64,000 nt of DNA, taken from the NCBI GenBank assembly GCA_934149405.1, contig CAKPEV010000002.1:194489-258488 (forward strand), written 5' to 3'. Shown piece after piece: positions 16,268 through 53,701 of the stretch. Source of the stretch: an uncultured Clostridia bacterium. GTDB taxonomy: Bacteria > Bacillota > Clostridia > TANB77 > UBA1234. The position numbers and the translations under genes are program-made. The number at the start of each line of letters is the position of its first letter. The stretch's first letter is position 1. Below the pieces are notes generated by a model. That model saw only the letters and a program-made list of their open reading frames with translations, had not been told where the DNA came from and searched no databases.

Positions 16268-16314
16268 TCCAGATATATTCGGAACACAAAAACGAATGTA
16301 TCTGGATGTTTTTT
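16268..16314. terminator. bidirectional intrinsic terminator between the convergent giant gene and fic
   Basis: 14-bp stem tccagatatattcg (16268-81) / cgaatgtatctgga (16293-306) with one mismatch, followed by TGTTTTTT. An A-rich run upstream could serve the minus strand. Confidence 0.7.
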
Positions 16315-17661: not shown

Positions 17662-18720
17662 ATGTTTGATAAATTAGAAAATGTTGAAAAGCGTTACGAA
17701 GAGCTTAATGCCAAGATTAGTGACCCTGAGGTTATTGCTAATCAAAATGAGTGGAAAAAGCTTATGAAAGAGCATGCAGATATTGAAGAAATCGTTGAAA
17801 AATACAGAGAATACAAGAAAATCGTTCAAAGTATCGATGAATTAAAAGAGATGCTTAACGATAAGGAAATGCACGATTTGGCTCAAATGGAGTTGGATGA
17901 GAATAAAGAAAAGTTGCCTAAAATTGAGGAAGAGTTGAAGCTTTTATTAGTTCCAAAAGACCCTAACGATGATAAGAACGTTATCATGGAAATTAGAGGC
18001 GGTGCAGGTGGAGAGGAATCTTCTTTATTTGCTGCTGATTTATTTAGAATGTACTCTATGTATGCTGAAAGAAAGAGATGGAAATTTGAAGTTTTAAATA
18101 TGAATGAAACAGAGCTTGGCGGAATTAAAGAGGCTACTATCATGATAACTGGTAAAGGTGCATATAGCAGACTTAAGTTCGAAAGTGGCGTTCACAGAGT
18201 TCAAAGAGTTCCTGATACAGAGTCTAGCGGAAGAATACATACTTCAACTGCTACGGTTGCGGTTCTTCCAGAGGTTGATGACGTTGAAGTTGAAATCAAT
18301 CCTGCAGACTTAAAAGTTGATACTTTTAGATCTAGCGGTGCTGGTGGACAACATATTAACAAGACTGAATCGGCTATAAGAATTACACATATACCAACTG
18401 GTGTTGTTGTTGAATGCCAAACAGAGCGTTCACAAATTCAAAACAGAGAAACTGCTATGAAGATGCTTCGTTCTAAGCTTTACGAGGCTGAACTTGAGAA
18501 GCAAAACAGCGAGCTTGCTTCTGCAAGAAAGAGCCAAGTTGGTAGTGGAGACCGTTCTGAAAAGATTAGAACATACAACTTCCCGCAAGGTAGAATTACA
18601 GACCATAGAATTGGACTAAGCATGTTCCAAGTTGATGAGTTTTTAAATGGCGGTCTTGACGAGATGATTGATGCACTTAATGCAGCAGATAGAGCAGCTA
18701 AGTTGTCTGAGGAAGATTAA
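17662..18720 (+). CDS. prfA: peptide chain release factor 1
   Basis: 352 aa with GGQ motif ([14 protein letters not shown]) and RF1-type P-x-T tripeptide (RVPDTES) followed by [15 protein letters not shown]. An AAAGGTGGA Shine-Dalgarno precedes the ATG. Confidence 0.95.
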
Positions 18721-30215: not shown

Positions 30216-30294
30216 TAGAAAAAGTAATAGTATAAAAATTTAATATAAGGAAATTAGCAAGTTCATAAAAATCAAATTGAAATGGGATGGTGTT

Positions 30295-35229: not shown

Positions 35230-35325
35230 AAGTGTGATAATTCAAATTTTCTCGAGTGCATAATGAATAAAAATTAACTTGTGAAGAAATAAGATAAATT
35301 AAAATTTTCAGAAAGGATGGCACAT

Positions 35326-38300: not shown

Positions 38301-41300
38301 TTCAGGAGATTACACAGTATACGGTTACAACGTAACAACAAGCGGAGAAGTGAACACAGCCGTTGCTGGAACATATAAAATTGACTATACAATAACAAGA
38401 ACATACACCAACGCAGGCACAACAAAGACAGATACACTAATGACTGTTACAAGAAATATAACAGTAAAGGAAGTAATAAAAGAAGAATCAAAGATGATAA
38501 CAGAATGGAACGTATCTGGCGATGCAGGATTAACAATCAAGTTGCCTGCACAATCAAGTGGCGATGTTGCATTAAACATAACAGTAGATTGGGGCGATGG
38601 CACGGCAGAGCAAACAGTAACAACATCATTCCCAACACATACTTATGCAACAGCAGGAACGTACGAAATAAAAGTATGGGGAACATGCCCAAAGTGGGGA
38701 TATGCAAGTTCAAGTTATGTATCAACAACATCAAATAGCGATTATTACACATATACACAATATTTAAGTAAAGTGAAACAGTTTGGCGAATTAGGAGCAC
38801 AGCAATACGGATTTTCACATTGTAAAAGCTTAAAAGAAGTTTCTGGCGAGAATCTAGTAACAGGCAAAACATTTGAAAAGACAACAGATATGTCAGGGAT
38901 GTTTTTTTGGTGTAGCAACCTAACGAGCTTGGATGTAAGCGGATTTGACACATCAAAGGTAACGAATATGTCAGGTATGTTTTATAATTGTAGCAAACTA
39001 ACGAGCTTGGATGTAAGCGGATTTGATACATCAAAGGTAACTAATATGTCATTTATGTTTTATATTTGTAGCAAACTAACGAGCTTGGATGTAAGCGGAT
39101 TTGATACATCAAAGGTAACTAATATGTCATATATGTTTCCTTATTGCAACCTAACGAGCTTGGATGTAAGCGGATTTGATACATCAAAGGTAACTACTAT
39201 GTCACATATGTTTTATTGTTGTAAGAACCTAACGAGCTTGGATGTAAGCAAATTTAACACATCAAAGGTAACAGATATGTCATATATGTTTTATATTTGT
39301 AGCAAACTAACGAGCTTGGATGTAAGCGGATTTGACACATCAAAAGTAAAAAATATGGAATATATGTTTTATAATTGTAGGAACCTAACCAGTTTGGATG
39401 TAAGCGGATTTGATACATCAAATGTAACAAATATGAGATTTATGTTTGGTAATTGTAGCAACCTAACGAGCTTGGATGTAAGCAAATTTAACACATCAAA
39501 GGTAACAGATATGTCATCTATGTTTTATAATTGTATGAACCTAACGAGCTTGGATGTAAGCGGATTTGACACATCAAATGTAACTATTATGGAATGGATG
39601 TTTTATAAATGTAGCAAACTAACGAGCTTGGATGTAAGTGGATTTAATACATCAAATGTAACTACTATGTCAAATATGTTTTCTGATTGTAGTAACCTAA
39701 CGAGCTTGGATGTAAGCGGATTTGACACATCAAAAGTAAAAAATATGGAATATATGTTTTATAATTGTAGGAACCTAACCAGTTTGGATGTAAGCGGATT
39801 TGATACATCAAATGTAACAAATATGAGATTTATGTTTGGTAATTGTAGCAACCTAACGAGCTTGGATGTAAGCGGATTTGATACATTAAATGTAACAAAT
39901 ATGTCAGGTATGTTTTATAAATGTAGCAAACTAATGAGCTTGGATGTAAGCAACTTTGATACGTCAAAAGTAACTAATATGACAGAGATGTTTAAAGGTT
40001 GTACAAGCTTGAAATCTTTACAAATAAGTAACAAATTTGTTATACCGACATCAGATAATACAAATATATTTACAAACACACCAAATTTAACCTCAATCAT
40101 CCTAGTAGACAGTACACCTCTTGCAGGTCAATTCACCAATATTAAAGCTCAACTAGACGGCAAGACTTTCTACGTACCAAGCAAAGTTGCAGAAACTGCT
40201 TACGAGACATCTTGGGTTGCAGATTTCAGTGGTGATAGAATTCAGCCAATACTAGAATTAGTAGGCGATGAAAATGTTACTATAAACGCAGGCGATACGT
40301 ACACAGATGCAGGCTACACAGTCGCAGGATTTGATACTACAAATTCAGGAGATTACACAGTATACGGCTACAACGTAACAACAAGCGGAGAAGTGAACAC
40401 AGCCGTTGCTGGAACATATAAAATTGATTATACAATAACAAGAACATACAACAACGCAGGCACAACAAAGACAGATACACTAATGACTGTTACAAGAAAT
40501 ATAACAGTAAAAGAAGTAATAAAAGAAGAATCAAAGATGATAACAGAATGGACAATACCATCTGCTAATGCAACAATAAAACTACCAGTACAAGGCACAG
40601 GCTTAAACATCACAGTAGATTGGGGCGATGGCACGGCAGAGCAAACAGTAACAACATCATTTCCAACGCATACATATGCTACAGCAGGAACATACGAGAT
40701 AAAAGTATGGGGAACATGCCCAAAGTGGGGATATGCAAATTTGGGCTCTGTATCAACAACATCAAATAGCGATTATTATACATCTACACAATACTTAACT
40801 AAGGTAAAACAATTTGGTGAACTAAGTGCAGTGCAATATGGTTTTGCACAATGCAAAAACTTGATAGAGGTTTCTGGTGAAAACTTAGTAACAAGCAAAA
40901 CATTTGAAAAGACAACCAATATGTCATATATGTTTTATTATTGCAGTAGCTTAACAAGTTTGGATGTAAGTAAATTTGACACATCAAAAGTAACAAATAT
41001 GTCATATATGTTTTCTAGATGTGGATTGATAAGTTTGGATATAAGCAATTTTAATACATTTAAAGTAACAGATATGTCATATATGTTTGGAGTTAGGTCG
41101 GTTAATAATGAGGTAAGCTCAGGAATAAAAGAAATAAAAGGACTAGAAAATATTAATACTTCTAATGTAATTTCAATGATGGGCATGTTCCAATGTTGTA
41201 CAGAATTGGAATATATAGATGTAAGCAATTTCGATACGTCAAAAGTAACAAATATGTCATGGATGTTTGATTGCTGTAGTAATTTGACAAATTTGAATGT

Positions 41301-44300
41301 AAGTAAATTTGATACATCGAAAGTGACCGATATGTCAATGATGTTTTATGCCTGCGGTAGGTTGACAAATTTAGATGTGAATAATTTTAATACATCAAAA
41401 GTAACTAATATGAAAACAATGTTTGGCTCTTGCTATAGCTTAAAAACTCTACAACTAAGCAACAAATTTGTTATACCTGCATCAAATAATACAAACATGT
41501 TTACAAACACTACAAACTTAACCTCAATCATCCTAGTAGACAGCACACCTCTTGCAGGTCAATTTACAAACGTTAAAGCTCAACTAGACGGCAAGACATT
41601 CTACGTACCAAGCAAATCTGCAGAAACAGCTTACGAAACATCTTGGGCAGCAGATTTCACAGCAGATAGAATTCAGCCAATTCTAGAATTAGTAGGCGAT
41701 GAAAATGTTACTATAGATGTTGGTGCTACATACACAGATGCAGGTTACACAGTTGCTGGTTTAACAATAGCCGACGAGAAATATTACACACCTTATGGTT
41801 ATAAGGTTACAAAGACTGGCGAAGTTATAACAAGCACAGTTGGTGTATATCAAATAAAATATGAAATAACAAGAACATATAACAACGCAGGTGTGGCACA
41901 AACAGACACACTAATGAATGTTACAAGAAATGTTATTGTGAAGGGTTCAATTGCAACAAGTATGATAACAGAATGGACAATACCATCTGCTAACACAACA
42001 ATAAAATTACCGGTTCAATCACATGGTGGAAATAGTCTAAATATCACAGTTGACTGGGGAGATGGTTCGGCAGTTCAAACTGTTACAACAAACTTCCCGA
42101 CGCATACTTATACAACTGCTGGAACGTATGATATAACAGTAAGTGGAACATGTCCAGCATGGGGATATATGGGCTCTGGAAGAGTATCAACAACATTGAA
42201 TAGCGATTATTATACATACACACAATATTTAACAAAAGTAAAACAATTTGGTGAACTAAATGCTCAATACTATGGATTTTCACAGTGCACAAATTTAACT
42301 TCTGTTAAAGGTGCAACGACAAATTCTACTTCAAATGTTACTACTATGGCAAATATGTTCTATTCTTGCCAGAGATTGAAAGAATTGGATTTAACAAATT
42401 TTGACACGTCGAAAGTAACAGATATGAATCATATGTTATTTAAAGCGGGAGTACAAGAGATTGATTTATCTTCATTTAATACAAGCAGTGTTACGAATAT
42501 GTCTGCTATGTTTGGACAATGTGGCTTTCTTACTAAGGTAAATCTATCTAGTTTTAACACTAGCAAAGTAACTAATATGACAGAGATGTTTATAGATTGT
42601 AGTGATTTAACTAATTTGGACTTAAGTAAATTCAAAACATCAAAAGTTACATACATGAATGAGATGTTTAGCAATTGTACTAGTTTGAAAAGCTTGAAAG
42701 TTTCTGCTCTTAACTTTAATACAGTAAATGTCATCAATATGAGAAGAATGTTTTACAATTGCAGTAGTTTGACTGAAATCCCAGTTGCGAAATTTAACAC
42801 TTCAAAGGTTACTAACTTTGACGAAATGTTTGCAAGATGTAGTTCGCTTAAAACATTAAATCTTTCTAACTTTGTTGTGAGCAATTATTTTGAAGGTGAC
42901 GATAGTAATAGTATGCTTAACGGTTGTACTAGCCTAAGGAGCATACAAATTAGTTCAACTTTTAAAGTGCCAATGAGCAAGATGTTTTTGAATACTCCTA
43001 ATTTGACTGCAATAATTGTTTTAGGAAATACTCCTTCTGCAGAACAATTTTCACCATGCATAGAAGACTTGGAAGGAAAAACATTTTATGTTACAGATGA
43101 GGAATTTCTAGAGATTTATAGAAAAGCATGGGAAAAGGGCTTTAGTGAAGATAGAATTAAGCCTTTACTAGAACTTAAAGGTAGCTCGCCTATAACAATA
43201 ACTAAAGGAACTAACTATGTCGATGCTGGATATACTATTGCTGGCTTTACAGAAGAAGACGAAATTTATTATAGTGTTTATGGATATAGTGCAACAGTAA
43301 AAAGTACAGTAGACTCTTCTGTGATTGGAAGTTATTCTGTAACGTATACTTTAAAACGTAAAGATAGTTCATCAGGACTTGGAATGGTAGAAATATTAAT
43401 GAATGTTGTAAGAATAGTCGTAGTAGAGGAAGGTAATATTGTAGGACTAGATATTATTCCTCCAACAGGTAGTATAACAGTTAAAGATGCTACAATCAGA
43501 AATAATATTAACTATGTTCCATCAAACAATGTTACATTAGAGATTTCGGCACAAGATAATATTTCAACTTCTTCGGAGATTAAAGTTTATATTACGACTG
43601 AAGCAATAGATTTAACTAAAAAAATTGCTGATGCTTTATGGGAAAATTACAGCAATGGTATGACAAAGACTATTACAATTACAAATCTTTCGACGACAAC
43701 AAGAATATATGCATTATTTAAAGATGCTGCTGGAAACACATCTGCTGCATTCACTGGAGCAGATACAGAGTATAGCATAATATACAATTTGAATGGTGGT
43801 ACAGGTAGCATTGAAAATGGAACTGCAAATTACGGTTCACCTGCAATTTTAAGTAACAAGGTTCCTACTAAGAGTGGTATGTATTTCTTAGGATGGAGCA
43901 CAAATGCCTCTGCTACAGTTGCTAGTTACAAGGCTGGCGGAATAATGCAAGCAGATACATTTAGTGGAACAAATAAAAACATAAATTTATATGCTGTTTG
44001 GGGAAACAAGCCTTTAATTTCTGAGGTGGTAGAGATTGGTGATTTAATTGATTTGCCAATATATTATAACGATTTGTCTGGAAATAACAGAACAGATTGG
44101 AAAGTGATTTCAAAGGTTGAAAACAGTACTACAGGCAGAAGTTCAGTTGTTGTGATAAGTACTGGTATACCGTTAACATTAGCAAATACATCTGCAGATT
44201 TAGTAAATGATTTCTTTAATATGAATAACTATTCGGAAAATGGATTTGAAAATAACATAGAGTTGAGCGAGTTGTTTTTAAACAAGTATGTAGATGTTAG

Positions 44301-45543
44301 TGATGAAAAGCCAAATGTTAAAGGAACTAAAAATGGCAACAATGTGTACGTGTTAATTACACTAAAAGATTTGACGTTAACTGCAGGAAAGAATGCGTAT
44401 GATAAATGGAGCGCAGAAAAACAATTAGATAAGATAACTGTAAGCTTTAATGCAAACGGTGGAACTTTAACGGAAGTTAGCAAGGACGTTGTATATGCTG
44501 GAAAATACGGCATACTTCCAACACCTACAAGAGAGGGATATCAATTTGACGGTTGGTATACAAGAAGTGTTGATGGCACATTGGTTAAAGATACAACAAA
44601 AGTTACAAAAAACTATAACCATACATTGTATGCACATTGGACATCGATTGGATATACATTTGTATTATCATTTGATTCAAATGGTGGAACAGGAACTATG
44701 ACAACGCAGTCATACAGAGAAGGCAAAGCGCAAGCAATTAAAGCAAATACATTTACAAAAGCAGGATATACATTCGCAGGTTGGGCAACAAGCGCAAATG
44801 GAGGAGTTGTTTATGCAGATAAAGCTTCTATAATATTAACAGAGAATACAACGTTATATGCGGTTTGGAATAAGCTGACTACACCAAGTAATTTCTGGAT
44901 AAATTCATACGGAAAAACATCTGCATCTTTAGGAGATATATGGGCTAGTTGGGATGATGTTGAAGGAGCAACATCGTATACTATTGCATATTCTACAGAT
45001 AATTCGACATGGACAGAGAAAACAGAAAGTGCTAGTTTGGCAACACCTATTAAGAATGGATATTGGCCACAAACGAATGGACATTATTACGTAAAGGTTA
45101 AAGCTAATATAAATGGCGGTTCAAGTGATTGGTCAGAAGTAAGAGAAATAAAATACGAGTATATAAGATTGGGTGTATCTGATGGAAGTACACAACTTAA
45201 AGAAGTAAGGTTGCTTTTGGTAGGTGGATATACAATATTCCTAAAAGAGAAAACGAGTGATACAATAAGTATATCAGCATACTATGGTGGTGGAGTTCCA
45301 GGAAACAACCATACAGATGAGATACTAGAAGACGAATATATACAAGGAAGATCATGGTATACTAATGATTCAACACCTTCTCAAGTTAAACCGGTAGTAA
45401 TAGAGCTTTATGCTGGTGAAGCGGGTACATGGAAGGAAAGTTCATCAGGAAGTACAACCGGGTATTATACAACACCATATACAATTGTTTTATATGGTTC
45501 GTCAACGTTACAAGACAGGATTGAATATGTACCAATGTATTAA
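35326..45543 (+). CDS. N-terminally anchored giant surface protein with four iterated [PKD-like cap + DUF285/BspA LRR array + Ig-like] super-modules, Flg_new repeats and FN3
   Basis: The ORF track starts at ATG 35317. ATG 35326 is better placed, 8 nt after the AAAGGA Shine-Dalgarno (35312-17). The TM helix is AIITSLIIIMVGIIALGIG. LRR arrays lie at ~36880-37995, 38869-40037, 40900-41470 and 42322-42965. Flg_new repeats are present (FNANGGTL.., FDSNGGTG..), and an FN3-like unit (..ATSYTIAYSTDNSTW..) lies near the C-terminus. Confidence 0.9.
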   Translation: MKNKAIITSLIIIMVGIIALGIGWHKIFDASATKPNLIECKGHIDKNQDMSCDICGAILSGESDTKYKTVKNTLESGTTIEVKGDMPSNAVLTTKEITREVATNIAKRYIPLDDDKVLYAYDISMVLKNKKYQPENYGKDVNITLTNLEIEDQKDVAVMHIIDNKSYEIMKLDELTKNKVSFKTTSFSTYIVLKVATYNVTFTGTGNFEVQTIRGNKITNSTELVSGTNFTFVVTPKAGYGISGITTSNGTITTNGDVLRKTATIDNITQATTITVTTVAAPVVTKQPVTVKVNSGETAIYTVTAQNATTYEWQYRTNENDYWKSASEIGTTNNGTLTITNVTDAINGYSIRCMLSNDSFDNGYEVKTDMAYVILAEGTLQMPVAIDEPIKEESKMITLWSIPYANTTIKLPVQSYGETALNITVSWGDGATETVTTAFPTHTYANVGIYEIKVWGTCPIWGYASADDVTKTRNSDYYTYTQYLIKVKQFGELSATRYGFARCTKLTEFSGQNLVTSKTFEKTTRMDYMFKGCNKLTNLDLSNFDTSKVTNMSNMFSFCSSLLTLDLSKFNTSNVTNMSDMFIGCELTTLDLSKFDTSSVTDMSGMFEYCDKLTNLDLSNFDTSSVTDMSYMFWFCKSMTSLNLSNFNTSKVTNMSKMFGACYDLTSLDVSKFDTSKVTNMSKMFSSCSKVASLEVNNFDTSNVTDISGMFSGCSSLISLDISKFDTSKVTSMSSMFYECSSLTSLDVSEFDTSKVMDMIEMFYNCSSLTSLDVSKFNTSKVTVMAGMFYNCSSLTSLDVSNFNTSNVVRGTNEVDASMRYMFAGCSNLTSLDVSNFDTSKVTSMDEMFAGCSNLTSLDVGNFDTSKVTSMYEMFAACTSLKSLQLSNKFFIPASNNTDMFTNTTNLKSIILVDGTPLAGQFTNIKAQLDGKTIYVPSKSAETAYETSWSTDFSGDRIQPILELVGDENVTINAGETYTDAGYTVAGFDTANSGDYTVYGYNVTTSGEVNTAVAGTYKIDYTITRTYTNAGTTKTDTLMTVTRNITVKEVIKEESKMITEWNVSGDAGLTIKLPAQSSGDVALNITVDWGDGTAEQTVTTSFPTHTYATAGTYEIKVWGTCPKWGYASSSYVSTTSNSDYYTYTQYLSKVKQFGELGAQQYGFSHCKSLKEVSGENLVTGKTFEKTTDMSGMFFWCSNLTSLDVSGFDTSKVTNMSGMFYNCSKLTSLDVSGFDTSKVTNMSFMFYICSKLTSLDVSGFDTSKVTNMSYMFPYCNLTSLDVSGFDTSKVTTMSHMFYCCKNLTSLDVSKFNTSKVTDMSYMFYICSKLTSLDVSGFDTSKVKNMEYMFYNCRNLTSLDVSGFDTSNVTNMRFMFGNCSNLTSLDVSKFNTSKVTDMSSMFYNCMNLTSLDVSGFDTSNVTIMEWMFYKCSKLTSLDVSGFNTSNVTTMSNMFSDCSNLTSLDVSGFDTSKVKNMEYMFYNCRNLTSLDVSGFDTSNVTNMRFMFGNCSNLTSLDVSGFDTLNVTNMSGMFYKCSKLMSLDVSNFDTSKVTNMTEMFKGCTSLKSLQISNKFVIPTSDNTNIFTNTPNLTSIILVDSTPLAGQFTNIKAQLDGKTFYVPSKVAETAYETSWVADFSGDRIQPILELVGDENVTINAGDTYTDAGYTVAGFDTTNSGDYTVYGYNVTTSGEVNTAVAGTYKIDYTITRTYNNAGTTKTDTLMTVTRNITVKEVIKEESKMITEWTIPSANATIKLPVQGTGLNITVDWGDGTAEQTVTTSFPTHTYATAGTYEIKVWGTCPKWGYANLGSVSTTSNSDYYTSTQYLTKVKQFGELSAVQYGFAQCKNLIEVSGENLVTSKTFEKTTNMSYMFYYCSSLTSLDVSKFDTSKVTNMSYMFSRCGLISLDISNFNTFKVTDMSYMFGVRSVNNEVSSGIKEIKGLENINTSNVISMMGMFQCCTELEYIDVSNFDTSKVTNMSWMFDCCSNLTNLNVSKFDTSKVTDMSMMFYACGRLTNLDVNNFNTSKVTNMKTMFGSCYSLKTLQLSNKFVIPASNNTNMFTNTTNLTSIILVDSTPLAGQFTNVKAQLDGKTFYVPSKSAETAYETSWAADFTADRIQPILELVGDENVTIDVGATYTDAGYTVAGLTIADEKYYTPYGYKVTKTGEVITSTVGVYQIKYEITRTYNNAGVAQTDTLMNVTRNVIVKGSIATSMITEWTIPSANTTIKLPVQSHGGNSLNITVDWGDGSAVQTVTTNFPTHTYTTAGTYDITVSGTCPAWGYMGSGRVSTTLNSDYYTYTQYLTKVKQFGELNAQYYGFSQCTNLTSVKGATTNSTSNVTTMANMFYSCQRLKELDLTNFDTSKVTDMNHMLFKAGVQEIDLSSFNTSSVTNMSAMFGQCGFLTKVNLSSFNTSKVTNMTEMFIDCSDLTNLDLSKFKTSKVTYMNEMFSNCTSLKSLKVSALNFNTVNVINMRRMFYNCSSLTEIPVAKFNTSKVTNFDEMFARCSSLKTLNLSNFVVSNYFEGDDSNSMLNGCTSLRSIQISSTFKVPMSKMFLNTPNLTAIIVLGNTPSAEQFSPCIEDLEGKTFYVTDEEFLEIYRKAWEKGFSEDRIKPLLELKGSSPITITKGTNYVDAGYTIAGFTEEDEIYYSVYGYSATVKSTVDSSVIGSYSVTYTLKRKDSSSGLGMVEILMNVVRIVVVEEGNIVGLDIIPPTGSITVKDATIRNNINYVPSNNVTLEISAQDNISTSSEIKVYITTEAIDLTKKIADALWENYSNGMTKTITITNLSTTTRIYALFKDAAGNTSAAFTGADTEYSIIYNLNGGTGSIENGTANYGSPAILSNKVPTKSGMYFLGWSTNASATVASYKAGGIMQADTFSGTNKNINLYAVWGNKPLISEVVEIGDLIDLPIYYNDLSGNNRTDWKVISKVENSTTGRSSVVVISTGIPLTLANTSADLVNDFFNMNNYSENGFENNIELSELFLNKYVDVSDEKPNVKGTKNGNNVYVLITLKDLTLTAGKNAYDKWSAEKQLDKITVSFNANGGTLTEVSKDVVYAGKYGILPTPTREGYQFDGWYTRSVDGTLVKDTTKVTKNYNHTLYAHWTSIGYTFVLSFDSNGGTGTMTTQSYREGKAQAIKANTFTKAGYTFAGWATSANGGVVYADKASIILTENTTLYAVWNKLTTPSNFWINSYGKTSASLGDIWASWDDVEGATSYTIAYSTDNSTWTEKTESASLATPIKNGYWPQTNGHYYVKVKANINGGSSDWSEVREIKYEYIRLGVSDGSTQLKEVRLLLVGGYTIFLKEKTSDTISISAYYGGGVPGNNHTDEILEDEYIQGRSWYTNDSTPSQVKPVVIELYAGEAGTWKESSSGSTTGYYTTPYTIVLYGSSTLQDRIEYVPMY
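36880..37995 (+). repeat. in-frame 78-nt LRR repeat array A (~14 units, approximate bounds)
   Basis: Periodic M-x-x-MF-x-x-C-x-x-L-T-x-LD-[LV]-S-x-F-[DN]-TS-x-VT units in the translation. Confidence 0.8.
38869..40037 (+). repeat. in-frame 78-nt LRR repeat array B (15 units) containing an exact 177-bp duplication
   Basis: 39307-39483 is identical to 39697-39873 (offset 390 nt, which is 5 units). Many units are near-identical to units of the 30295 gene. Confidence 0.9.
40900..41470 (+). repeat. in-frame LRR repeat array C (approximate bounds, more divergent)
   Basis: The same 26-residue periodicity, with one irregular insert (..GVRSVNNEVSSGIKEIKGLENINTSNV..). Confidence 0.7.
42322..42965 (+). 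repeat. in-frame LRR repeat array D (approximate bounds, most divergent)
   Basis: Periodic ..M-x-x-MF-x-x-C-x-x-L-x-x-[LV]-[DN]-LS-x-F-[KN]-TS-KVT.. units. Confidence 0.7.
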
Positions 45544-45564: not shown

Positions 45565-47601
45565 ATGAAGAAAAAAGAAATTATAGCAAGCCTAATATCT
45601 ATAACGGTAGGTGCAATAATTCTGGCGGTTGGCTGGCACAAACTTGCCAGCACGAGCCGAAATAATTTAATATCGTGCAAGCATGTTGATGAAAATATAG
45701 ACATGATTTGTGATTCATGTGGTGCTAGCCTTTCTTTTAAAGCTTATGCTTTTGAGCAGGAACTAAAAAAGAGTATTAGCGGTGATGAAACTATACAAGC
45801 GAAAGGCGACATGTTAAGCGGGACCGAGCTTGTGGCTAGTAAATTAGAAAATGCCGATACGATTGCACTTGCTAAAAAGCATATACCTACACTTAAAGAT
45901 GAAGATATTATTGCAGGATATGATATTTCAATGCTTGTTAATAATATGAAATTCGAGCCGAAAAAATATGGCGAAAGTGTAAATATTAGCATTGATGGAT
46001 TAAGTGTAAAAGATAAAGAAAACATGGCGATGCTACACATATTAGGTGATTTTACATACGAAATAATTCCGCTAGATAGTTTTAGCAAAAACAAGATTGG
46101 TTTTAATGCCACTAGTTTTTCAACGTATATATTGGTTACTTTAGGAACATATAGTGTTACGTTTTCCGGCGACGGAGATGTTACAATTCTTGACCAATAT
46201 GGTGTAGAATTAAAGAATAATTCTACAATAGATGGTGGCACAAATTTCACATTTACGATAGTTTCGAATGATGGATATGAGCTAAAAGGTGCTACGCTTG
46301 CAAACAGCGGAGTGGCAACGATAAGTGGCGTTGGAAATGGTTATGGTAAAACTTTTACAGTTAAGAATATAACTTCTAATTTGACCATTAATATTAACAC
46401 GATTGAGTTGCCTATGATTGTTTCTAATCCAAAGACGCAAAAGATTAAAGATGGTTCATCTGCAAGTTTTAGCGTTACTGGTGAAAATGTTAAAAAGGTT
46501 GTTTGGGAATACAGAGAAAGTGGAGATGCCGAATGGAAATCTACAAACGAAGTTTGGGGTTACTCGATGTTACAAGGTACAACATCAACATTTAGTACAG
46601 GAACAGTAAGCGAAGATAAGAGTGGATATCAACTAAGAGCTTTGTTATATGCTGAAACAACATCAACAAAGCCAACGATATCAGAGTCCGCAATGTTAAT
46701 CGCTATGCAAGATGTTGTGACGGTTGATATTAGGTCTACGCTAATACCAGAACATCCTATTATAATAACTTCTAGACCAGCAGGTGTTTGGGGTTATACA
46801 GATGTTTCATTCACAATGGTAAATGGGGGAAATTTGCCTGAGAATCAAACGTTGCAATACAAGATTGGAAATGGTGCTTGGACAGATTATTTAGCTGAAA
46901 CAGTGATTAATACAGAAGGAACTACATTACTATATGGTAGAGCTATAAATGCAGATGACACAAAATATATAAGCGAAGAAGTAGTTGTTGAAATCAAGAT
47001 TGATAAAACTACTCCATATATTACAGTTAATAAGATTACTGATTCTTCGGTTGAGTTTACTGCATCAGATGCACTTTCAGGTGTTGCAGCTTGGGCTGTG
47101 ACAGATGGTACAACAGCTCCTAAGAACAAAGTAACAACAGATTCTGTTTCTGGAGATAAGTTAAATACATGGTATTCAGTTTCAGGTATTGCTACACCAA
47201 TGGATTTGAGTTTTGAAGGTTTGAGTTTGGGTACATATTATATCTGGTTAAAGGATAGAGCGGGAAATATATGCACACCTAAAGATATAACAATATACAA
47301 AGACATCATGGCACCTATCGGAAGTTTGAAGATTGTTGGTAATGAAGTTGATGGGGCTACGTATGTAAATAATACAAGCGTAAAATTGATACTAACAGCA
47401 ATAGACAACATTACAGATACAGCAAAGATAAAGATGAAAATACTAAATAAAGAAGAATTTGATAATTTGAAAACACTTGACGATATAGTGTGGGAAGACT
47501 ATAAAAACGAGGTGACATGGCAGATACCAAGCAATGACGGAGTGAAGAGAGTTTATTTGTTATTGAAGGATGAGGCGGGAAATGTTTCATTGTCATTGTA
47601 A
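45565..47601 (+). CDS. N-terminally anchored surface protein; paralog of the N-terminal ~390 aa of the 35326 gene plus Ig-like C-terminal modules, without LRR
   Basis: The ORF track starts at ATG 45556; ATG 45565 follows the same gaaaggatggcac[ag]tatga start context as 35326. The TM helix is IIASLISITVGAIILAVG and it carries the same C..H-x-D-x-N-x-DM-x-CD-x-CG motif. The C-terminus is a KD-x-AGN Ig-like module like the end of the 2..16225 gene. Confidence 0.85.
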   Translation: MKKKEIIASLISITVGAIILAVGWHKLASTSRNNLISCKHVDENIDMICDSCGASLSFKAYAFEQELKKSISGDETIQAKGDMLSGTELVASKLENADTIALAKKHIPTLKDEDIIAGYDISMLVNNMKFEPKKYGESVNISIDGLSVKDKENMAMLHILGDFTYEIIPLDSFSKNKIGFNATSFSTYILVTLGTYSVTFSGDGDVTILDQYGVELKNNSTIDGGTNFTFTIVSNDGYELKGATLANSGVATISGVGNGYGKTFTVKNITSNLTININTIELPMIVSNPKTQKIKDGSSASFSVTGENVKKVVWEYRESGDAEWKSTNEVWGYSMLQGTTSTFSTGTVSEDKSGYQLRALLYAETTSTKPTISESAMLIAMQDVVTVDIRSTLIPEHPIIITSRPAGVWGYTDVSFTMVNGGNLPENQTLQYKIGNGAWTDYLAETVINTEGTTLLYGRAINADDTKYISEEVVVEIKIDKTTPYITVNKITDSSVEFTASDALSGVAAWAVTDGTTAPKNKVTTDSVSGDKLNTWYSVSGIATPMDLSFEGLSLGTYYIWLKDRAGNICTPKDITIYKDIMAPIGSLKIVGNEVDGATYVNNTSVKLILTAIDNITDTAKIKMKILNKEEFDNLKTLDDIVWEDYKNEVTWQIPSNDGVKRVYLLLKDEAGNVSLSL

Positions 47602-47670
47602 AAATAGTGGTCTAAAGTGATTTAAAAAGTATTAGTATAAATATTTATGATTTATAAATAAAATTTAAAA

Positions 47671-47707
47671 AGAGGTTCATTTCCAATATGAAAATGGCCT
47701 CTTTTTT
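47671..47707 (+). terminator. probable intrinsic terminator of the surface-protein operon
   Basis: agagg..ttcc (47671-84) pairs imperfectly with g.aaa..cctct (47690-702) and is followed by TTTTTT. The stem has an internal loop. Confidence 0.55.
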
Positions 47708-47755
47708 ATGTTGAAGTAGATAATTTATTTTACAATTTGTAAACGCAAAATATAG

Positions 47756-47784
47756 TTGCTAACGATAAAAAAGTGGTGTATACT
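47756..47784 (+). promoter_or_regulatory. putative sigma-A promoter
   Basis: TTGCTA (47756-61), 17 nt, TATACT (47779-84), upstream of the 47823 gene. Confidence 0.45.
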
Positions 47785-47822
47785 TTTTTTAGATATTTAA
47801 TTATAGTTTTGGAGGTATACTG

Positions 47823-48587
47823 ATGAATAAAAAGTCTAAGATGATTTTGATTATATGTGTAATTATTGTTGTGCTAGGCGTTGGAGGGTATTTGACTTAT
47901 AATGCAATGCATAAAGAACCTACACCACCTATTATTGATATTCCATCTGGAGATATAAAAACGCCTGAGGCAAAGGCTGATTCGATTGTTGTGCAAGATG
48001 TAAAAGTTGAAAACTATACGGATAATAGATATATAAATTGCGTGTATCCTAAGATTACAAATCTTACAGACAAAGAGTTTGAAAACTATATTAACAAGCA
48101 AATAGCTACTAATATAAACGAATATAGAAGTGAAATCGAGTATATTGTTGATGATGAAACTTTGCCTACGGAAATGTATAGATATGTTACAACATATTCA
48201 AGATATAACTGTGATAAGTATTTATCTTTGGTTATTGACCAAGATTATCAAACTGGCGGAATTCGTTCAAACAAGTGGAAAGATATATACAATATAAATG
48301 TTGAAACGCAAAGAATATTTTATCTAGAAGAGTTATTTGAGGCCGGCGCTAAGTATGAAGAGGCCATCATAGCAGAGATAACGAAACAAGCTGAGGCAAA
48401 GAACATGGAGCTTGTTGGTGGAAATGGATTGACAAAACTTCCTAAAAAACAAAAGTTTTATATAAAAGATAATAAACTTACAGTTTATTATGACCCTTCA
48501 GAGATTTCGGCAACTGCTTTTGGAGAGCAACATTTTGAAATGCCATTTACAATGAATGAAAAAGGATTTTTTGAAATAGGACAATAA
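47823..48587 (+). CDS. membrane-anchored DUF4163/DUF3298-like (RsiV/PdaC N-terminal-like) protein
   Basis: 254-aa ORF with a GGAGG Shine-Dalgarno and an N-terminal TM helix. The ..CVYPKITNLTDKEFENYINKQI.. and ..FYIKDNKLTVYYDPSEISATAFGEQHFEMPF.. segments are typical of that family, recalled from memory. Confidence 0.6.
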   Translation: MNKKSKMILIICVIIVVLGVGGYLTYNAMHKEPTPPIIDIPSGDIKTPEAKADSIVVQDVKVENYTDNRYINCVYPKITNLTDKEFENYINKQIATNINEYRSEIEYIVDDETLPTEMYRYVTTYSRYNCDKYLSLVIDQDYQTGGIRSNKWKDIYNINVETQRIFYLEELFEAGAKYEEAIIAEITKQAEAKNMELVGGNGLTKLPKKQKFYIKDNKLTVYYDPSEISATAFGEQHFEMPFTMNEKGFFEIGQ

Positions 48588-48592
48588 AATAG

Positions 48593-48621
48593 TTGACATT
48601 ATATGGCAAGCTGAATATAAT
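48593..48621 (+). promoter_or_regulatory. consensus sigma-A promoter of the cysS leader
   Basis: TTGACA (48593-98), exactly 17 nt, TATAAT (48616-21). Confidence 0.7.
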
Positions 48622-48693
48622 ATGTAGTAGTATTAGGAAGGTGAGAAATCGTCTAGGAGTCCTATAATTATTGAGATATAAGGAGATGTAAAT

Positions 48694-48735
48694 ATGATTA
48701 GAAATATACTTTTAATATGCTGTTGTACGAGATAA
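48694..48735 (+). CDS. candidate 13-codon leader peptide MIRNILLICCCTR with three consecutive Cys codons
   Basis: AAGGAG (48680-85) is 8 nt before ATG 48694. The codons tgc tgt tgt lie at 48718-26 and the stop at 48733-35. The ORF sits in the cysS leader upstream of a terminator. Confidence 0.5.
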   Translation: MIRNILLICCCTR

Positions 48736-48824
48736 ATGCTCTGTCTTAGTTAGTAGACATGAGTATTAGAAGTCGTGCCTACATAAAAGTATATTTATTA
48801 TCGAAATAATTATAATAAATTATG

Positions 48825-48868
48825 AAGCTATGTAGGCAAGTAAAATTGCAAACATAGCTTTTTGTTTT
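48825..48868 (+). terminator. intrinsic terminator (attenuator) inside the cysS leader
   Basis: Stem aagctatgt (48825-33) / acatagctt (48852-60) plus inner gcaa/ttgc pairs, followed by TTTGTTTT. It lies 116 nt upstream of the cysS ATG. Confidence 0.7.
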
Positions 48869-48983
48869 ATTCATGTGAAAGAAGAAAAAAGCGAGTAAGT
48901 TAGGAAATTTGAAAAGCCACATAGTGTATACTTATTGTAAATATTGGATTTTTGTGGTAAATTATTTGTATTGGAGGTTAGTT

Positions 48984-50447
48984 ATGAAGATATATAATTC
49001 AATGACTGGAAAGAAAGAAGAATTTAAGCCTATAAAAGATGGCGAGGTTAAAATGTATGCCTGCGGAATAACTGTGTATGATTTAAGTCATATAGGTCAC
49101 GCAAGGCAAGCAATCGTATACTCAATGATTAAAAATTATCTTGAATATAGAGGATATAAAGTTACATATGTTAGAAATTATACAGATGTAGATGACAAAA
49201 TAATAAATAAAGCAAATGCTCTAGGAAAAAATGCAATAGAATTTTCAAGAGAACAAATTGAAGAAACAGAAAAAGACATGGCAGGGCTTCATGTTGCACC
49301 AGCAGATATACAAACTAAGGCTTCTGAATATATTGATAAAATCATAGATTTTGTTCAAAAGCTAATTGATAAAGGCTTTGCATATGTTGCACCAAATGGA
49401 GATGTTTATTACAGTGTTAGAAAGTTTAAAGATTACGGAAAACTTTCACATAGAAATGTTGATGACATGTTAAACGGTGTGCGCATAGAACTTGAAGAAG
49501 GCAAAGAAGATCCTATAGACTTTGCACTTTGGAAATCAGCTAAACCTGGCGAGATTTCGTGGGATTCTCCTTGGGGTAAAGGTAGGCCAGGTTGGCATAT
49601 AGAGTGCTCTGCAATGGCTTTAAATACTCTAGGAGAGACAATAGATATACATGGTGGAGGAAGAGATTTATTATTCCCACACCATGAAAATGAAATTGCA
49701 CAAAGTGAAGCTTTAACAGGCAAAACTTTTGCAAATTATTGGTCTCATTGCGGACTTATAAAAATAAATGGTGAAAAAATGAGCAAGTCACTTGGCAATT
49801 CTTTAACTATTAGAGATGCTTTAAAGATGTATGATTACGAAGTTATAAAATACTTAATGTTTAGTAAGCATTATGGCTCAGATATGGATATTCTAGATAG
49901 CGATTTTCTAATGTCAGAAAAGCATATGTATTATTTTTACATGAGCATTAAACAAATGGAGGATTTTATTAACACGTATGGTGGAAATGTTGATGGTGAA
50001 GCACTTCCAGACGACATATCTGAAAAAATAATCCCAGATTTCATCGAGGTTATGGATGATGATTTTAATACAGCTGCGGCACTTGCAAACTTACATGGAA
50101 TCTTTAAATATGCTAATGGAATTATAAAATTAGCTAAAAAGAATACAAGAGAACAAACAGCAAATACTCTTGCAAAAATTCTTAAAAATATAAAAGAAGT
50201 TTATGGAATTTTAGGTTTATTCACAGAAAAACCAGAAGATTTTATAAGCAAAATGAAAGAGAAATATTTAAGCAAATTAAATATTGATGTTTCATTTGTC
50301 GAGGGTGAAATTTCAAAAAGAGCAGAAGCTAAAAAGTCAAAAGACTTTGAAACAGCAGACGCTATAAGAAGTTCGTTAGATGAAAAAGGTATCATATTAA
50401 ATGATACAGCAGAAGGAACTGTATGGGACATAAAGGCTTTATACTAA
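48984..50447 (+). CDS. cysS: cysteine--tRNA ligase
   Basis: The ORF track starts at 48909; GGAGG (48973-77) places the start at ATG 48984 (MKIYNSMTGKKEEFKP, as in known CysRS). HIGH (LSHIGHAR) and KMSKS (EKMSKSLGN) motifs are present. Confidence 0.95.
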   Translation: MKIYNSMTGKKEEFKPIKDGEVKMYACGITVYDLSHIGHARQAIVYSMIKNYLEYRGYKVTYVRNYTDVDDKIINKANALGKNAIEFSREQIEETEKDMAGLHVAPADIQTKASEYIDKIIDFVQKLIDKGFAYVAPNGDVYYSVRKFKDYGKLSHRNVDDMLNGVRIELEEGKEDPIDFALWKSAKPGEISWDSPWGKGRPGWHIECSAMALNTLGETIDIHGGGRDLLFPHHENEIAQSEALTGKTFANYWSHCGLIKINGEKMSKSLGNSLTIRDALKMYDYEVIKYLMFSKHYGSDMDILDSDFLMSEKHMYYFYMSIKQMEDFINTYGGNVDGEALPDDISEKIIPDFIEVMDDDFNTAAALANLHGIFKYANGIIKLAKKNTREQTANTLAKILKNIKEVYGILGLFTEKPEDFISKMKEKYLSKLNIDVSFVEGEISKRAEAKKSKDFETADAIRSSLDEKGIILNDTAEGTVWDIKALY

Positions 50448-50492
50448 AATAGTAGAAAGGTTGTAATATTTTTATAAAAAGTGAGGTGTGTT

Positions 50493-51656
50493 ATGGAGAT
50501 TGATGAAATCGTACTAAAAAACAGTGCTGAGATGGAGAAATATTTTTCACCGTATGCTTGCAAAACAGAAGAAGCATATAGATTTAAAAAAGAAAGAAGA
50601 AAAAATGAATTCAATGTAAGACCTACATTCTTCAGAGATGCGGACCGTATATTGCACTCTGGTGCATACTCTTGCTACATGGATAAAACGCAGGTCTTTC
50701 CACTAATAAATAACGACTTGATTACACACAGAGGATTGCATGTTCAATTTGTTTCTAAAATCGCAAGAACAATAGGTAGAAGCCTTAAACTAAATGAAGA
50801 CTTAATAGAGGCCGTGGCATTAGGTCATGACTTGGGTCACGCACCATTTGGCCATATGGGCGAGAAATGTTTAAATATTATTAGTGAAAAACATGGCCTT
50901 GGATTATTTCTTCATAATGCACAAAGTATTAGAGTTTTAAACGAAATAGAAAATGGCGGAAATGGTTTAAATATAACCGTTCAGGTATTAGATGGCATAC
51001 TTTGTCATAACGGAGAATTCTTATGTAAAAAATATGAACCGAATTATGAGAAAACACCAGAAGAATTCATGCAAGAATATAAAAGAACATGGCTTGAAAA
51101 AGGATTTGACAAAACTTTGAAACCAATGACGCTAGAAGGCTGTGTAGTGAGAATTTCAGATGTAATTGCATATATCGGAAGAGACATCGAAGACGCAATC
51201 ACAGTAAAACTAATAAAAAGAGAAGATATACCAGAAGAGATAACAAAAGTACTTGGAAATAAAAACTCAGAAATAATCGACACATTAGTAGAAGATTTGA
51301 TATATCATAGCTTCGATAAACCATACTTAGAGTTCACAAAAGAAGTATTCACAGCATTAAAGAAACTGCTAGACTTCAATTATAAAAACATATATACTAA
51401 TCCTAAAAAAGAAGATAAAGAAGAAAAATACATATGCATGTTTGAAATGCTTTACGAAGCTTTGCTAGAAGATTTAAAAAATAAAACGGGCAGAATAAAC
51501 GAGGTTTATCTACAAACCAAATGTGCAAAATATAAAAGAGAAACATCGCCAGAAAGAATAGTAATAGACTACATTGCAGGAATGACAGATGACTATTTCT
51601 TGGCAGAATACAAACTACACTTCTTACCAAAGAGAAGAGATTTAACAGTAGAATAA
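50493..51656 (+). CDS. HD-domain dNTP/dGTP triphosphohydrolase-like protein
   Basis: The start is taken at ATG 50493 after GTGAGG. It has the HDLGHAPFGH motif and THRGLHV.. upstream, typical of the dGTPase-like HD family. Confidence 0.8.
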   Translation: MEIDEIVLKNSAEMEKYFSPYACKTEEAYRFKKERRKNEFNVRPTFFRDADRILHSGAYSCYMDKTQVFPLINNDLITHRGLHVQFVSKIARTIGRSLKLNEDLIEAVALGHDLGHAPFGHMGEKCLNIISEKHGLGLFLHNAQSIRVLNEIENGGNGLNITVQVLDGILCHNGEFLCKKYEPNYEKTPEEFMQEYKRTWLEKGFDKTLKPMTLEGCVVRISDVIAYIGRDIEDAITVKLIKREDIPEEITKVLGNKNSEIIDTLVEDLIYHSFDKPYLEFTKEVFTALKKLLDFNYKNIYTNPKKEDKEEKYICMFEMLYEALLEDLKNKTGRINEVYLQTKCAKYKRETSPERIVIDYIAGMTDDYFLAEYKLHFLPKRRDLTVE

Positions 51657-52525: not shown

Positions 52526-52705
52526 TAAATCAACTCCTTTTATAATTGAAAAAAATATTGCCATATACGCAATTGACTTTATAAGTATAGTACACATGGA
52601 AAGAAAAGTCAACATAAAGAGGAGTGTGCTAACTGTCAGACTTGCAATTTTATGTAAAACTTGCTATAATAAAATTCACTTTCGAAAATTTTGGAGGAAT
52701 GGTAT

Positions 52706-53701
52706 ATGTCAAATGGCAAGAACCAAAACAAAGGCGGTATAGCAGTATGGATAGTTATTGCTTCAATCGTCGCTTTGTACTTTTTAGGAATCAACATCTA
52801 TGATATAACCCTAGGACCAAGTAATGCAGGCGACGAAACCACAACAACTGCTGAGACCCTAGTGCAAATGCCCGAAACTGCCAGACCAGATGGTGAGCTA
52901 ATACTCACAATGATTGATGTGGGGCAGGCTGACAGCTTTTTGCTTGTTCAAAATGGCAAGACAATGCTTGTCGATTGTGGAACGCGGTCAACAGGCGAAG
53001 ATGTTGTTAAATACCTAAATGAACAGGGCATAAAAAGACTTGACTATGTAATTGGTACGCACCCACACGATGACCACATGGGCGGAATGTATGATGTAAT
53101 TACCAATTTTGAGATTGGCAAAATCATCATGCCAGAAGTTGAAGCAGGAAAGGTTACTACCAACTGGTATGTTAAGCTTATGCAAGAAATCAAGCAAGGC
53201 GCTTATGAACTTGAGTATGCTAAACTTGGTGCAGTGTACGACCTTGGTGATGCAAGCTTTAAAATTATTGGTCCAATAGAAACCGATGAAAGCAACTTAA
53301 ACAATTATTCAATTGTTTTAAAAGTAACTTTTGGAGACATGGATGTAATAATGACTGGCGACGCAGAAACAAAGGTTGAAAAGGCCATCATAGAGTCAGG
53401 GGAAGCACTTGGCGCTGAAATCTTAAAGGTTGGACATCATGGAAGTGACACTTCATCGAGCGATGAATTTCTTGATGAAGTATCGCCTCTATACGCACTT
53501 ATTTCTGCAAAGGTTGGCAACAAGTACGAGCACCCAATAAAATCGACAATGGAAAAATTAGAAGAGCGAAAAATAAAAGTTTATCGGACTGATGAAAATG
53601 GCACTGTCGTTGCTACGATAACGGCAAATGACGTGAAATTTAGCACGGATCCAGGCGATTATTTAAGTGGCACAGAATTAGAGGAGGCAAAAAACAAATG
53701 A
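52706..53701 (+). CDS. ComEC/Rec2-related metallo-beta-lactamase-fold hydrolase with N-terminal membrane anchor
   Basis: GGAGG precedes ATG 52706. It has an HxHxDH motif (HPHDDHMGG), ..DVGQADSFL.. and ..KVGHHGS.., typical of the ComEC C-terminal-like MBL family. Confidence 0.8.
   Translation: MSNGKNQNKGGIAVWIVIASIVALYFLGINIYDITLGPSNAGDETTTTAETLVQMPETARPDGELILTMIDVGQADSFLLVQNGKTMLVDCGTRSTGEDVVKYLNEQGIKRLDYVIGTHPHDDHMGGMYDVITNFEIGKIIMPEVEAGKVTTNWYVKLMQEIKQGAYELEYAKLGAVYDLGDASFKIIGPIETDESNLNNYSIVLKVTFGDMDVIMTGDAETKVEKAIIESGEALGAEILKVGHHGSDTSSSDEFLDEVSPLYALISAKVGNKYEHPIKSTMEKLEERKIKVYRTDENGTVVATITANDVKFSTDPGDYLSGTELEEAKNK

Follow-up and report, generated by a model that had tools for sequence, protein, structure and literature searches.

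In Escherichia coli, leader-peptide attenuators control trp, his and pheST (pheM), and pheST is a precedent for an aminoacyl-tRNA synthetase (aaRS) gene controlled in this way. The principle of leader-peptide attenuation is summarised in PMC4007540 and PMC9413887. In Firmicutes, aaRS genes are typically controlled by T-boxes (PMC1262725, PMC2494555), and a 2005 survey stated that no aaRS gene of this phylum uses classical attenuation (PMC1262725). Predicted His leader peptides have already qualified that statement: they have been proposed at a hisS paralogue and hisZ in the Bacillus cereus group (Naville & Gautheret 2010, PMC2965389), and at his operons in Peptostreptococcaceae and Erysipelotrichales (PMC9413887). 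Attenuation by an upstream open reading frame (uORF) with Cys codons has been described at cysS, the gene for cysteinyl-tRNA synthetase (CysRS), in Rhodobacterales and Deinococcus; the class is known in other phyla and rare in Firmicutes. The uORFC-8-2 motif, with 145 examples that all lie 5ʹ of cysS in Rhodobacterales, was read as ribosome-mediated attenuation (Brewer et al. 2021, RNA Biol 18:2417, PMC8632094). In Deinococcus deserti, a leaderless 10-aa leader peptide with two Cys was proposed as an attenuator of cysS (PMC4007540). Leader ORFs with Cys runs precede actinobacterial cys operons (PMC1262725), and mycobacteria have polycysteine leaderless short ORFs (bioRxiv 10.1101/834739). Here we describe the leader of cysS in a 64,000-nt stretch of DNA from an uncultured Clostridia bacterium (hereafter the window; all coordinates are those of this stretch).

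Sequence, folding and comparative evidence indicate, with a probability that we put at about 0.75, that this leader controls cysS by ribosome-mediated (leader-peptide) transcription attenuation, with charged tRNA-Cys as the signal sensed. Judged from its letters, it appears to have every feature by which the leader-peptide class is recognised: a short ORF with a Shine-Dalgarno sequence (SD) near the transcript 5ʹ end, in an arrangement kept in four lineages; tandem codons that match the regulated gene (three for Cys in front of cysS); an intrinsic terminator between the uORF and the gene; and a mutually exclusive antiterminator and anti-antiterminator, the latter coverable by a stalled ribosome. 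The elements are as follows.

48593 to 48621, plus strand: sigma-70-type promoter, TTGACA (48593-48598), 17-nt spacer, TATAAT (48616-48621), 12/12 match.
48680 to 48685, plus strand: SD of the uORF, AAGGAG, 8 nt 5ʹ of the ATG at 48694.
48694 to 48735, plus strand: leader ORF of 13 codons and a stop, MIRNILLICCCTR; ATG at 48694, stop codon TAA at 48733-35.
48702 to 48730, plus strand: region 1, the 5ʹ arm of the anti-antiterminator, inside the uORF.
48718 to 48726, plus strand: three consecutive Cys codons, TGC TGT TGT, the proposed sensing codons.
48735 to 48767, plus strand: apical hairpin between regions 1 and 2, pairs 48735-41/48761-67 and 48742-46/48755-59.
48773 to 48801, plus strand: region 2, the partner of region 1 or region 3, common to inverted repeats I2 (with 48696-714) and I5 and I7 (with 48812-38).
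48812 to 48838, plus strand: region 3, shared by the antiterminator (as 3ʹ arm) and the terminator (as 5ʹ arm).
48824 to 48868, plus strand: intrinsic terminator, hairpin 48824-33/48852-61 with inner GCAA/UUGC (48836-39/48846-49) and U-tract UUUUUGUUUU (48859-48868).
48984 to 50447, plus strand: cysS, a class I cysteinyl-tRNA synthetase of 487 aa (Pfam tRNA-synt_1e, E = 1e-129; also a DALR_2 domain).

How does this leader compare with those described before? Like the leaders of E. coli trp, his and pheST, it combines a promoter-proximal uORF carrying tandem cognate codons with mutually exclusive 1:2, 2:3 and 3:4 hairpins and an intrinsic terminator. It differs from them in its host, a member of the Bacillota, and in the 33-nt hairpin inserted between regions 1 and 2. 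Furthermore, the terminating ribosome sterically blocks region 2 in E. coli trp, whereas the stop codon of the window uORF lies ~40 nt 5ʹ of region 2, too far away for such a block. Hence, the OFF state must come from ribosome release and renewed pairing of regions 1 and 2.

The uORFC-8-2 motif resembles the window leader in preceding cysS, in having a tandem-Cys uORF inside a stem that is followed by a terminator stem and a U-run, and in that a stall at the Cys codons permits read-through. However, its uORF encodes a longer peptide with two Cys, usually at positions 14-15, whereas the window uORF has three, at positions 9-11 of 13 aa; and the motif is alpha-proteobacterial with two prominent stems, whereas the window leader is from Clostridia and has an explicit 1:2, 2:3 and 3:4 set and an apical hairpin. 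By its published description (phylum, peptide length, number and position of Cys codons, helix layout), uORFC-8-2 does not include the window leader. The narrow clade distribution of the latter, described below, points to an independent origin, and no sequence relation is expected. The His leaders of Firmicutes are likewise “regular” leader-peptide attenuators where T-boxes are usual, one of them before an aaRS paralogue, and are likewise computational predictions only, but they concern another amino acid and other genes and have no sequence relation to the window leader. The Deinococcus and actinobacterial leaders share with it a short ORF with a Cys run before cysteine-related genes, proposed or shown to sense cysteine through translation. 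Their ORFs are leaderless, with the AUG at the transcript 5ʹ end, whereas the window uORF has a canonical SD; and the mycobacterial cases have no obvious intrinsic terminator, whereas the window has a clear terminator/antiterminator pair. Finally, the T-box (RF00230), the usual control of cysS and cysES in Bacilli, occupies the same position in the 5ʹ leader of aaRS genes and likewise leads to antitermination when charged tRNA runs short, but it senses uncharged tRNA directly, without translation, and the window leader has no T-box signature.

The initial annotation had named the promoter, the uORF with its AAGGAG and three Cys codons, the terminator and cysS, and direct reading confirmed each of them at its coordinates. 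The start of cysS is the ATG at 48984 and not the TTG at 48909 that appears in a mechanical list of ORFs. In a promoter scan that returned 26 promoter-like sites against 18.9 expected, the 12/12 promoter was the sole match of its quality in 47500-51000, and the promoter hexamers and their spacing are identical in four of the related loci introduced below (L081, L092, L093 and L095). Counting both strands, the window has 1388 ORFs of 5-40 codons that start with ATG, and only the leader uORF has three consecutive Cys codons; the expectation from composition is ~1e-4 per ORF of its length. The SD and ATG of the uORF are unpaired in the minimum free energy (MFE) fold, and every homologue carries an SD-like AAGGAG or AAGGAA.

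The leader is strongly structured, and the structure is confined to one part of it. The RNA from 48628 to 48880 has an MFE of -64.3 kcal/mol (z = -4.6), and none of 200 shuffled sequences was as stable; the same was true of each of the three alternative folds. In the 1:2 fold (-31.8 kcal/mol for the whole structure, z = -4.9), 48702-14, which corresponds to uORF codons 3-7, forms 13 perfect base pairs with 48784-96, and further pairs are 48721-23/48781-83 and 48725-30/48773-78. The apical hairpin between the two regions starts at the last base of the uORF stop codon and may act as a pause or delay element for RNA polymerase. The 2:3 antiterminator (-18.0 kcal/mol, z = -4.0) pairs 48776-85 with 48829-38 and 48790-801 with 48812-24. 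The terminator has a core of -17.7 kcal/mol and an extended form of -21.0 kcal/mol (z = -6.6). The 5ʹ leader (48622-93, z = -0.7) and the spacer before cysS (48873-983, z = -0.1) are unstructured. Given the z-scores of the three segments and of the flanks, the excess structure lies exactly in the module from uORF to terminator.

The inverted repeats share arms in the way an attenuator needs. The alternative pairings suggested in the initial annotation, TGCCTACAT/ATGTAGGCA and ATTTATTAT/ATAATAAAT, proved to be exact inverted repeats (I5, 10/10, and I7, 9/9). Its candidate for the anti-antiterminator, a weak pairing at 48753-59, did not hold: that role belongs to the uORF itself (48702-30). An outer helix, 48663-78/48799-814 (inverted repeat I3), was excluded from the conserved mechanism as specific to the window, since its 5ʹ segment is replaced in L093 and L095.

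The step that had been left unresolved in the initial annotation, how a stall at the Cys codons would favour the antiterminator, was addressed by folding with and without a mask for the stalled ribosome. We folded nascent RNA ending at 48850, a stage at which the terminator still lacks its 3ʹ arm, with a ribosome footprint that extends from A-15 to A+11. Without a ribosome, the MFE structure keeps 1:2 and leaves region 3 free. With the mask placed for Cys1, Cys2 or Cys3 in the A site, the MFE structure contains the 2:3 antiterminator. The nascent RNA therefore switches as the annotation had supposed, and the missing step is that a stalled ribosome covers region 1 and thereby frees region 2. 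The same masked folding gave the same switch from 1:2 to 2:3 in L081 and L093. The geometry of the footprint is informative: at the first Cys codon it begins at ~48703 and covers the 13-nt arm 48702-14, and at the stop codon it begins at ~48718, so that this arm is exposed again. When the RNA has emerged only as far as 48800 and the ribosome occupies the stop codon, the MFE structure already contains the 13-bp helix.

We propose the following mechanism. Transcription would start ~7 nt after the -10 hexamer (48628), and a ribosome would load on the uORF while RNA polymerase moves on downstream. When Cys-tRNA-Cys is plentiful, the ribosome would pass the three Cys codons, terminate at the UAA (48733-35) and leave. 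Region 1 (48702-30) would then pair with region 2 (48773-96), and region 3 would be free to form the terminator hairpin with region 4, so that transcription would end short of cysS, at the U-tract (48859-68). When Cys-tRNA-Cys is in short supply, the ribosome would stall with a Cys codon in the A site, and its footprint (~48703-48735) would cover region 1. Region 2 would pair with region 3 as the latter emerges, forming the antiterminator; the terminator would be blocked and the polymerase would read into cysS. The predicted outcome is more cysteinyl-tRNA synthetase when charged tRNA-Cys is low. Both the dependence of read-through on cysteine and the timing of ribosome and polymerase are inferred.

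Is the leader found in other genomes? A protein search returned thousands of CysRS homologues, among them many metagenomic CysRS at 74-99% identity, whose contigs were fetched as loci with L numbers (P numbers denote CysRS proteins). A scan of GTDB species with CysRS gave, among the matches listed, relatives at ≤51% identity; in a background set of 79 loci from these relatives with enough upstream sequence, there was no credible SD-preceded uORF with a Cys run within 500 nt 5ʹ of cysS. The leader is present in L081/L082 (CysRS P0004, 86% identity), where the uORF reads MDKNILLVCCCSL. A pattern scan of metagenome DNA gave eight loci. Three of them (L092, L093 and L095, the last from a human gut metagenome) are true homologues with the uORF MIRNILLICCCTR; four (L094 and L096-L098) were rejected because they lie inside unrelated coding sequence, and L091 (MNILLICCCFPSV) was set aside as a chance match without an SD, a terminator or a nearby cysS. 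The leader of L088 (P0003) is partial, the contig beginning inside the terminator. The leader is absent from L083, L089 and L090 (82-83% identity) and from L084-86 (77%), which have ordinary promoter-bearing intergenic regions.

In a neighbour-joining tree of CysRS, P0004 and P0009 fall together with the window cluster, and P0005-P0008 form the sister clade. The leader of the P0009 locus, L099, was predicted from this tree before the locus was fetched and was then found, with the uORF MDKNILLVCCCNF and the same three helices. It is absent from the sister-clade locus L100 and from the outgroup loci L101, where cysS lies 68 nt after a sortase gene, and L102, where it lies 21 nt after a PALP gene. 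The leader is therefore distributed over four lineages that form one CysRS clade, and is absent from the sister clade (L083, L089, L090 and L100) and the outgroups (L084-86, L101 and L102). This is most simply read as a single origin at the base of this small clade, with an ancestral cysS that had neither a T-box nor a leader peptide. For the Cys-run uORF, the conservation in relatives on which the initial annotation had made its proposal depend is thus observed, and the terminator and antiterminator are conserved along with it.

The conservation of the leader is well above the identity at synonymous sites, across ~15% divergence of the CysRS protein. Between the window and L081 or L099, identity is 72-73% from uORF to terminator, 80-84% in regions 2 and 3 and 74-77% in region 1, compared with 47-53% at four-fold degenerate sites of cysS. 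Between L081 and L099 the corresponding values are 88.5%, 86.4%, 96.7% and 51%. The sequence 5ʹ of the SD and the spacer from terminator to cysS are not alignable between the subclades, and the 5ʹ leader segment is 50 nt longer in L081. Within the uORF, the Cys codons are TGC TGT TGT in the window and TGT TGC TGT in L081 and L099, differing by synonymous changes only. Codons 2-3 vary in amino acid (IR or DK), as do the two codons after the Cys run (TR, SL or NF). The NILL codons are invariant at all three positions, and their third positions are fixed because these codons form the 13-bp helix. Only the three Cys are amino acids kept through nucleotide change.

Pairing is conserved to a similar extent in the three folds. 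In alignment A2, which holds six distinct sequences, 96.4% of cells are paired for 1:2, 99.2% for 2:3 and 96.3% for 3:4, and the 13-bp helix is paired in all six sequences (100%). Compensatory changes are found in the apical hairpin (U-A to C-G) and in the terminator (G-C to A-U), both in L081 and L099, and several further changes in the helices are from A-U to G-U. The covariation is compatible with the structure and is not proof of it. It is indecisive because only six distinct sequences are available and most pairs never vary.

Several observations weigh against an attenuator. The covariation is weak: for 1:2 and 3:4, between 17 and 35 of 500 shuffles score as high as the real alignment, and no double change falls in the antiterminator. 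The hairpin at 48824-61 was not flagged by a simple terminator scan; G-C pairs are few in its outer stem, and the inner helix lengthens what the scan counts as the loop beyond 8 nt, which accounts for the miss. Full-length RNA at equilibrium always folds into the terminator, whichever footprint is masked. Hence, the switch has to be kinetic, and the nascent fold is the informative test. In nascent RNA to 48840-50, a mask at the stop codon also gives 2:3 at equilibrium, and so the OFF state must rely on prompt release of the ribosome and re-formation of the full 1:2 structure. A candidate promoter at 48935-63 could bypass the attenuator and give basal expression of cysS. Lastly, the Bacillota are classed at the phylum level as “runaway transcription” organisms, in which polymerases outrun ribosomes (PMC13323073). 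Where the polymerase outruns the ribosome, attenuation timed by a ribosome is disfavoured unless the polymerase pauses.

An explanation without translation would make the leader an RNA switch for some other signal, such as a very divergent T-box for uncharged tRNA-Cys, a metabolite riboswitch or a protein-binding leader, with the uORF incidental. The strong structure of the leader and the typical control of Firmicutes aaRS genes speak for it, as does the recovery of T-boxes at three control loci among the 18 cysS loci scanned: RF00230 matched at 121.7 bits in a Bacillus sp. (L037), 108.1 in Oceanobacillus (L042) and 96.8 in a metagenome-assembled genome of the Acutalibacteraceae (L034). However, Rfam 15 gave no match in the whole window at the gathering score, and in 48400-49100 at E <= 10 with permissive filters it gave only meaningless matches to eukaryotic small nucleolar RNAs, microRNAs and long non-coding RNAs. 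With the controls recovered, these scans rule out a T-box or any known RNA family at the leader. The T-box covariance model likewise finds no member at the window leader or at the homologous loci L081 and L093, and a scan of L081, L083, L084, L089, L090 and L093 found none. Beside the three helices, the span from SD to terminator has no room for a stem I and specifier loop; no aptamer is conserved 5ʹ of the SD, where the segment is replaced in L093 and L095 and 50 nt longer in L081; and no sequence is conserved outside the helices. A sensor of this kind would also leave unexplained why the SD spacing, the ATG, the frame, the 13-codon length and the Cys run are kept. We consider it very unlikely. 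The absence of a T-box thus agrees with the initial annotation, which had described the attenuator as standing in place of one; the idea of replacement did not find the same support, as the nearest leaderless relatives also have no T-box.

It is similarly improbable that a ribosome decides between the folds without regard to cysteine, through a general slowing of translation (as in erm or cat leaders) or through stalling by the nascent peptide. Any stall within ~48703-48735 would indeed free region 2, and the hydrophobic core NILL[IV]CCC of the peptide is conserved. Nonetheless, it is the helix, and not the peptide, that fixes the nucleotides of the NILL codons, no resistance gene lies downstream, and three codons for the rarest amino acid, kept through synonymous change, stand before the cognate synthetase. 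The same pattern in the uORF, with NILL invariant by way of the helix and only Cys kept through nucleotide change, fits an RNA structure with sensing codons and not a functional peptide. It also bears on a further possibility, that the promoter, uORF and terminator are a stand-alone small gene, for a small RNA (sRNA) of ~245 nt or an mRNA for a Cys-rich peptide of 13 aa, and that cysS has its own promoter downstream and is adjacent without regulatory meaning. The unit does begin with a consensus promoter and end with a terminator of its own, leaders that have been terminated are often retained as sRNAs, and the weak promoter-like site at 48935-63 is kept within the window subclade. Yet that site cannot be aligned in L081 or L099, in all four lineages the unit occurs only immediately 5ʹ of cysS and on the same strand, and a 2:3 alternative that overlaps the terminator would be purposeless in a plain sRNA. 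We regard a stand-alone gene as unlikely. A chance arrangement without function is the least credible account of all. AT-rich intergenic DNA readily yields promoter-like hexamers and A-U hairpins, as the excess of promoter-like sites in our scan illustrates, but chance would have to provide the 12/12 promoter, a Cys-run uORF unique in the window, three folds that beat 200/200 shuffles between flanks that do not, conservation well above that of synonymous sites, and a leader in L099 that was predicted from the tree and then confirmed.

What would a leader-peptide attenuator at this locus mean? It would add an anatomically complete case of classical leader-peptide attenuation at an aaRS gene in the Firmicutes, and in Clostridia, where T-boxes rule. 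Because the element is limited to a small clade, whose sister clade shows a plain promoter, the states before and after the birth of an attenuator can be compared. The timing of the switch is its most interesting aspect, given the “runaway transcription” class of the Bacillota, and the leader is a concrete object with which to test whether a ribosome can time attenuation in bacteria whose phylum is believed to run transcription and translation uncoupled. Tentatively, and with the odds rather against it, we suggest that the attenuator arose de novo and recently, in front of a plain-promoter cysS, in the ancestor of one narrow clade of uncultured gut Clostridia; that it is timed by ribosomes in a phylum with outrunning polymerases; and that the conserved hairpin between regions 1 and 2 and the distance of ~125 nt from the Cys codons to the decision point are the adaptation that lets a trailing ribosome decide termination. 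Were this so, it would be a natural case of leader-peptide attenuation born, and functioning, without tight coupling of transcription to translation. For annotation, the 13-codon ORF is better described as a leader peptide than as a hypothetical protein, and the 175-nt module is a compact candidate sensor of cysteine or tRNA-Cys.

Some further observations concern the leader and its relatives. The candidate weak secondary promoter at 48935-48963, between the terminator and cysS, consists of TTGTAA, a 17-nt spacer and TAAATT preceded by TGg (extended -10); it scores 8/12, under the threshold of the scan, and is kept in L087, L088, L092, L093 and L095 and not alignable in L081 and L099. On the other side of the leader, the stop codon of the PdaC/DUF3298 gene (48585-87) is only 5 nt away from the -35 hexamer, and no terminator intervenes, so that read-through from upstream would also enter the attenuator. 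The 5ʹ leader segment from the -10 hexamer to the SD is wholly different between the window (48622-48680) and L093 (6703-6760) and L095, and the promoter and the uORF-to-terminator module around this replaced segment are near-identical between them. L088, a relative at 90% identity, has an insertion of ~200 nt (~88-290) between the conserved GTGGTAAATTAT and the SD of cysS, which contains a GC-rich hairpin, GGAGCACAGTGTGCTCC. L092 (1-1788, with a cysS fragment from ~1400) shares 95-98% identity with the window across the leader and the first ~120 nt of cysS, after which identity falls to 60-77%; the rest of the fragment has no match above 75% among the sampled CysRS. Either recombination had its breakpoint just within cysS, or the metagenome contig is chimeric. 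In L102 (63-2513), a relative at 77% identity, the gene that ends 21 nt before cysS encodes a PALP-family, cysteine-synthase-like protein of 321 aa. This arrangement suggests an operon of a cysK-like gene and cysS; the region upstream is lost at the end of the contig.

The neighbourhood of cysS is conserved as PdaC/DUF3298, cysS and an HD-phosphohydrolase gene. In the window, the last of these (HD/HD_assoc, 50481-51656, plus strand) directly follows cysS and is possibly co-transcribed with it, and a gene for a metallo-beta-lactamase-fold protein lies at 52691-53701 (plus strand). Genes for a Fic/DOC protein (16313-17362, minus strand) and peptide chain release factor RF-1 (17662-18720, plus strand) lie further upstream. 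Four giant ORFs are on the plus strand, at 26-16225, 19116-26729, 30277-35229 and 35317-45543 (5399, 2537, 1650 and 3408 aa). They had raised the suspicion of nonribosomal peptide or polyketide synthases, and hence of a cysS for self-resistance within a biosynthetic cluster. This idea was rejected, since the neighbourhood of cysS is conserved and the three ORFs that were scanned (2537, 1650 and 3408 aa) encode repeat-rich surface proteins, with up to 17 copies of DUF285, BspA-type leucine-rich repeats, Listeria-Bacteroides Flg_new repeats, and Ig-like and PKD domains. The motif TGYTGYTGY occurs 22 times in the whole window against 8 expected, 18 of the 22 on the minus strand. This minus-strand excess, mostly inside the giant plus-strand ORFs, is probably the reverse complement of repeated ACA/GCA-type codons and unrelated to the leader.

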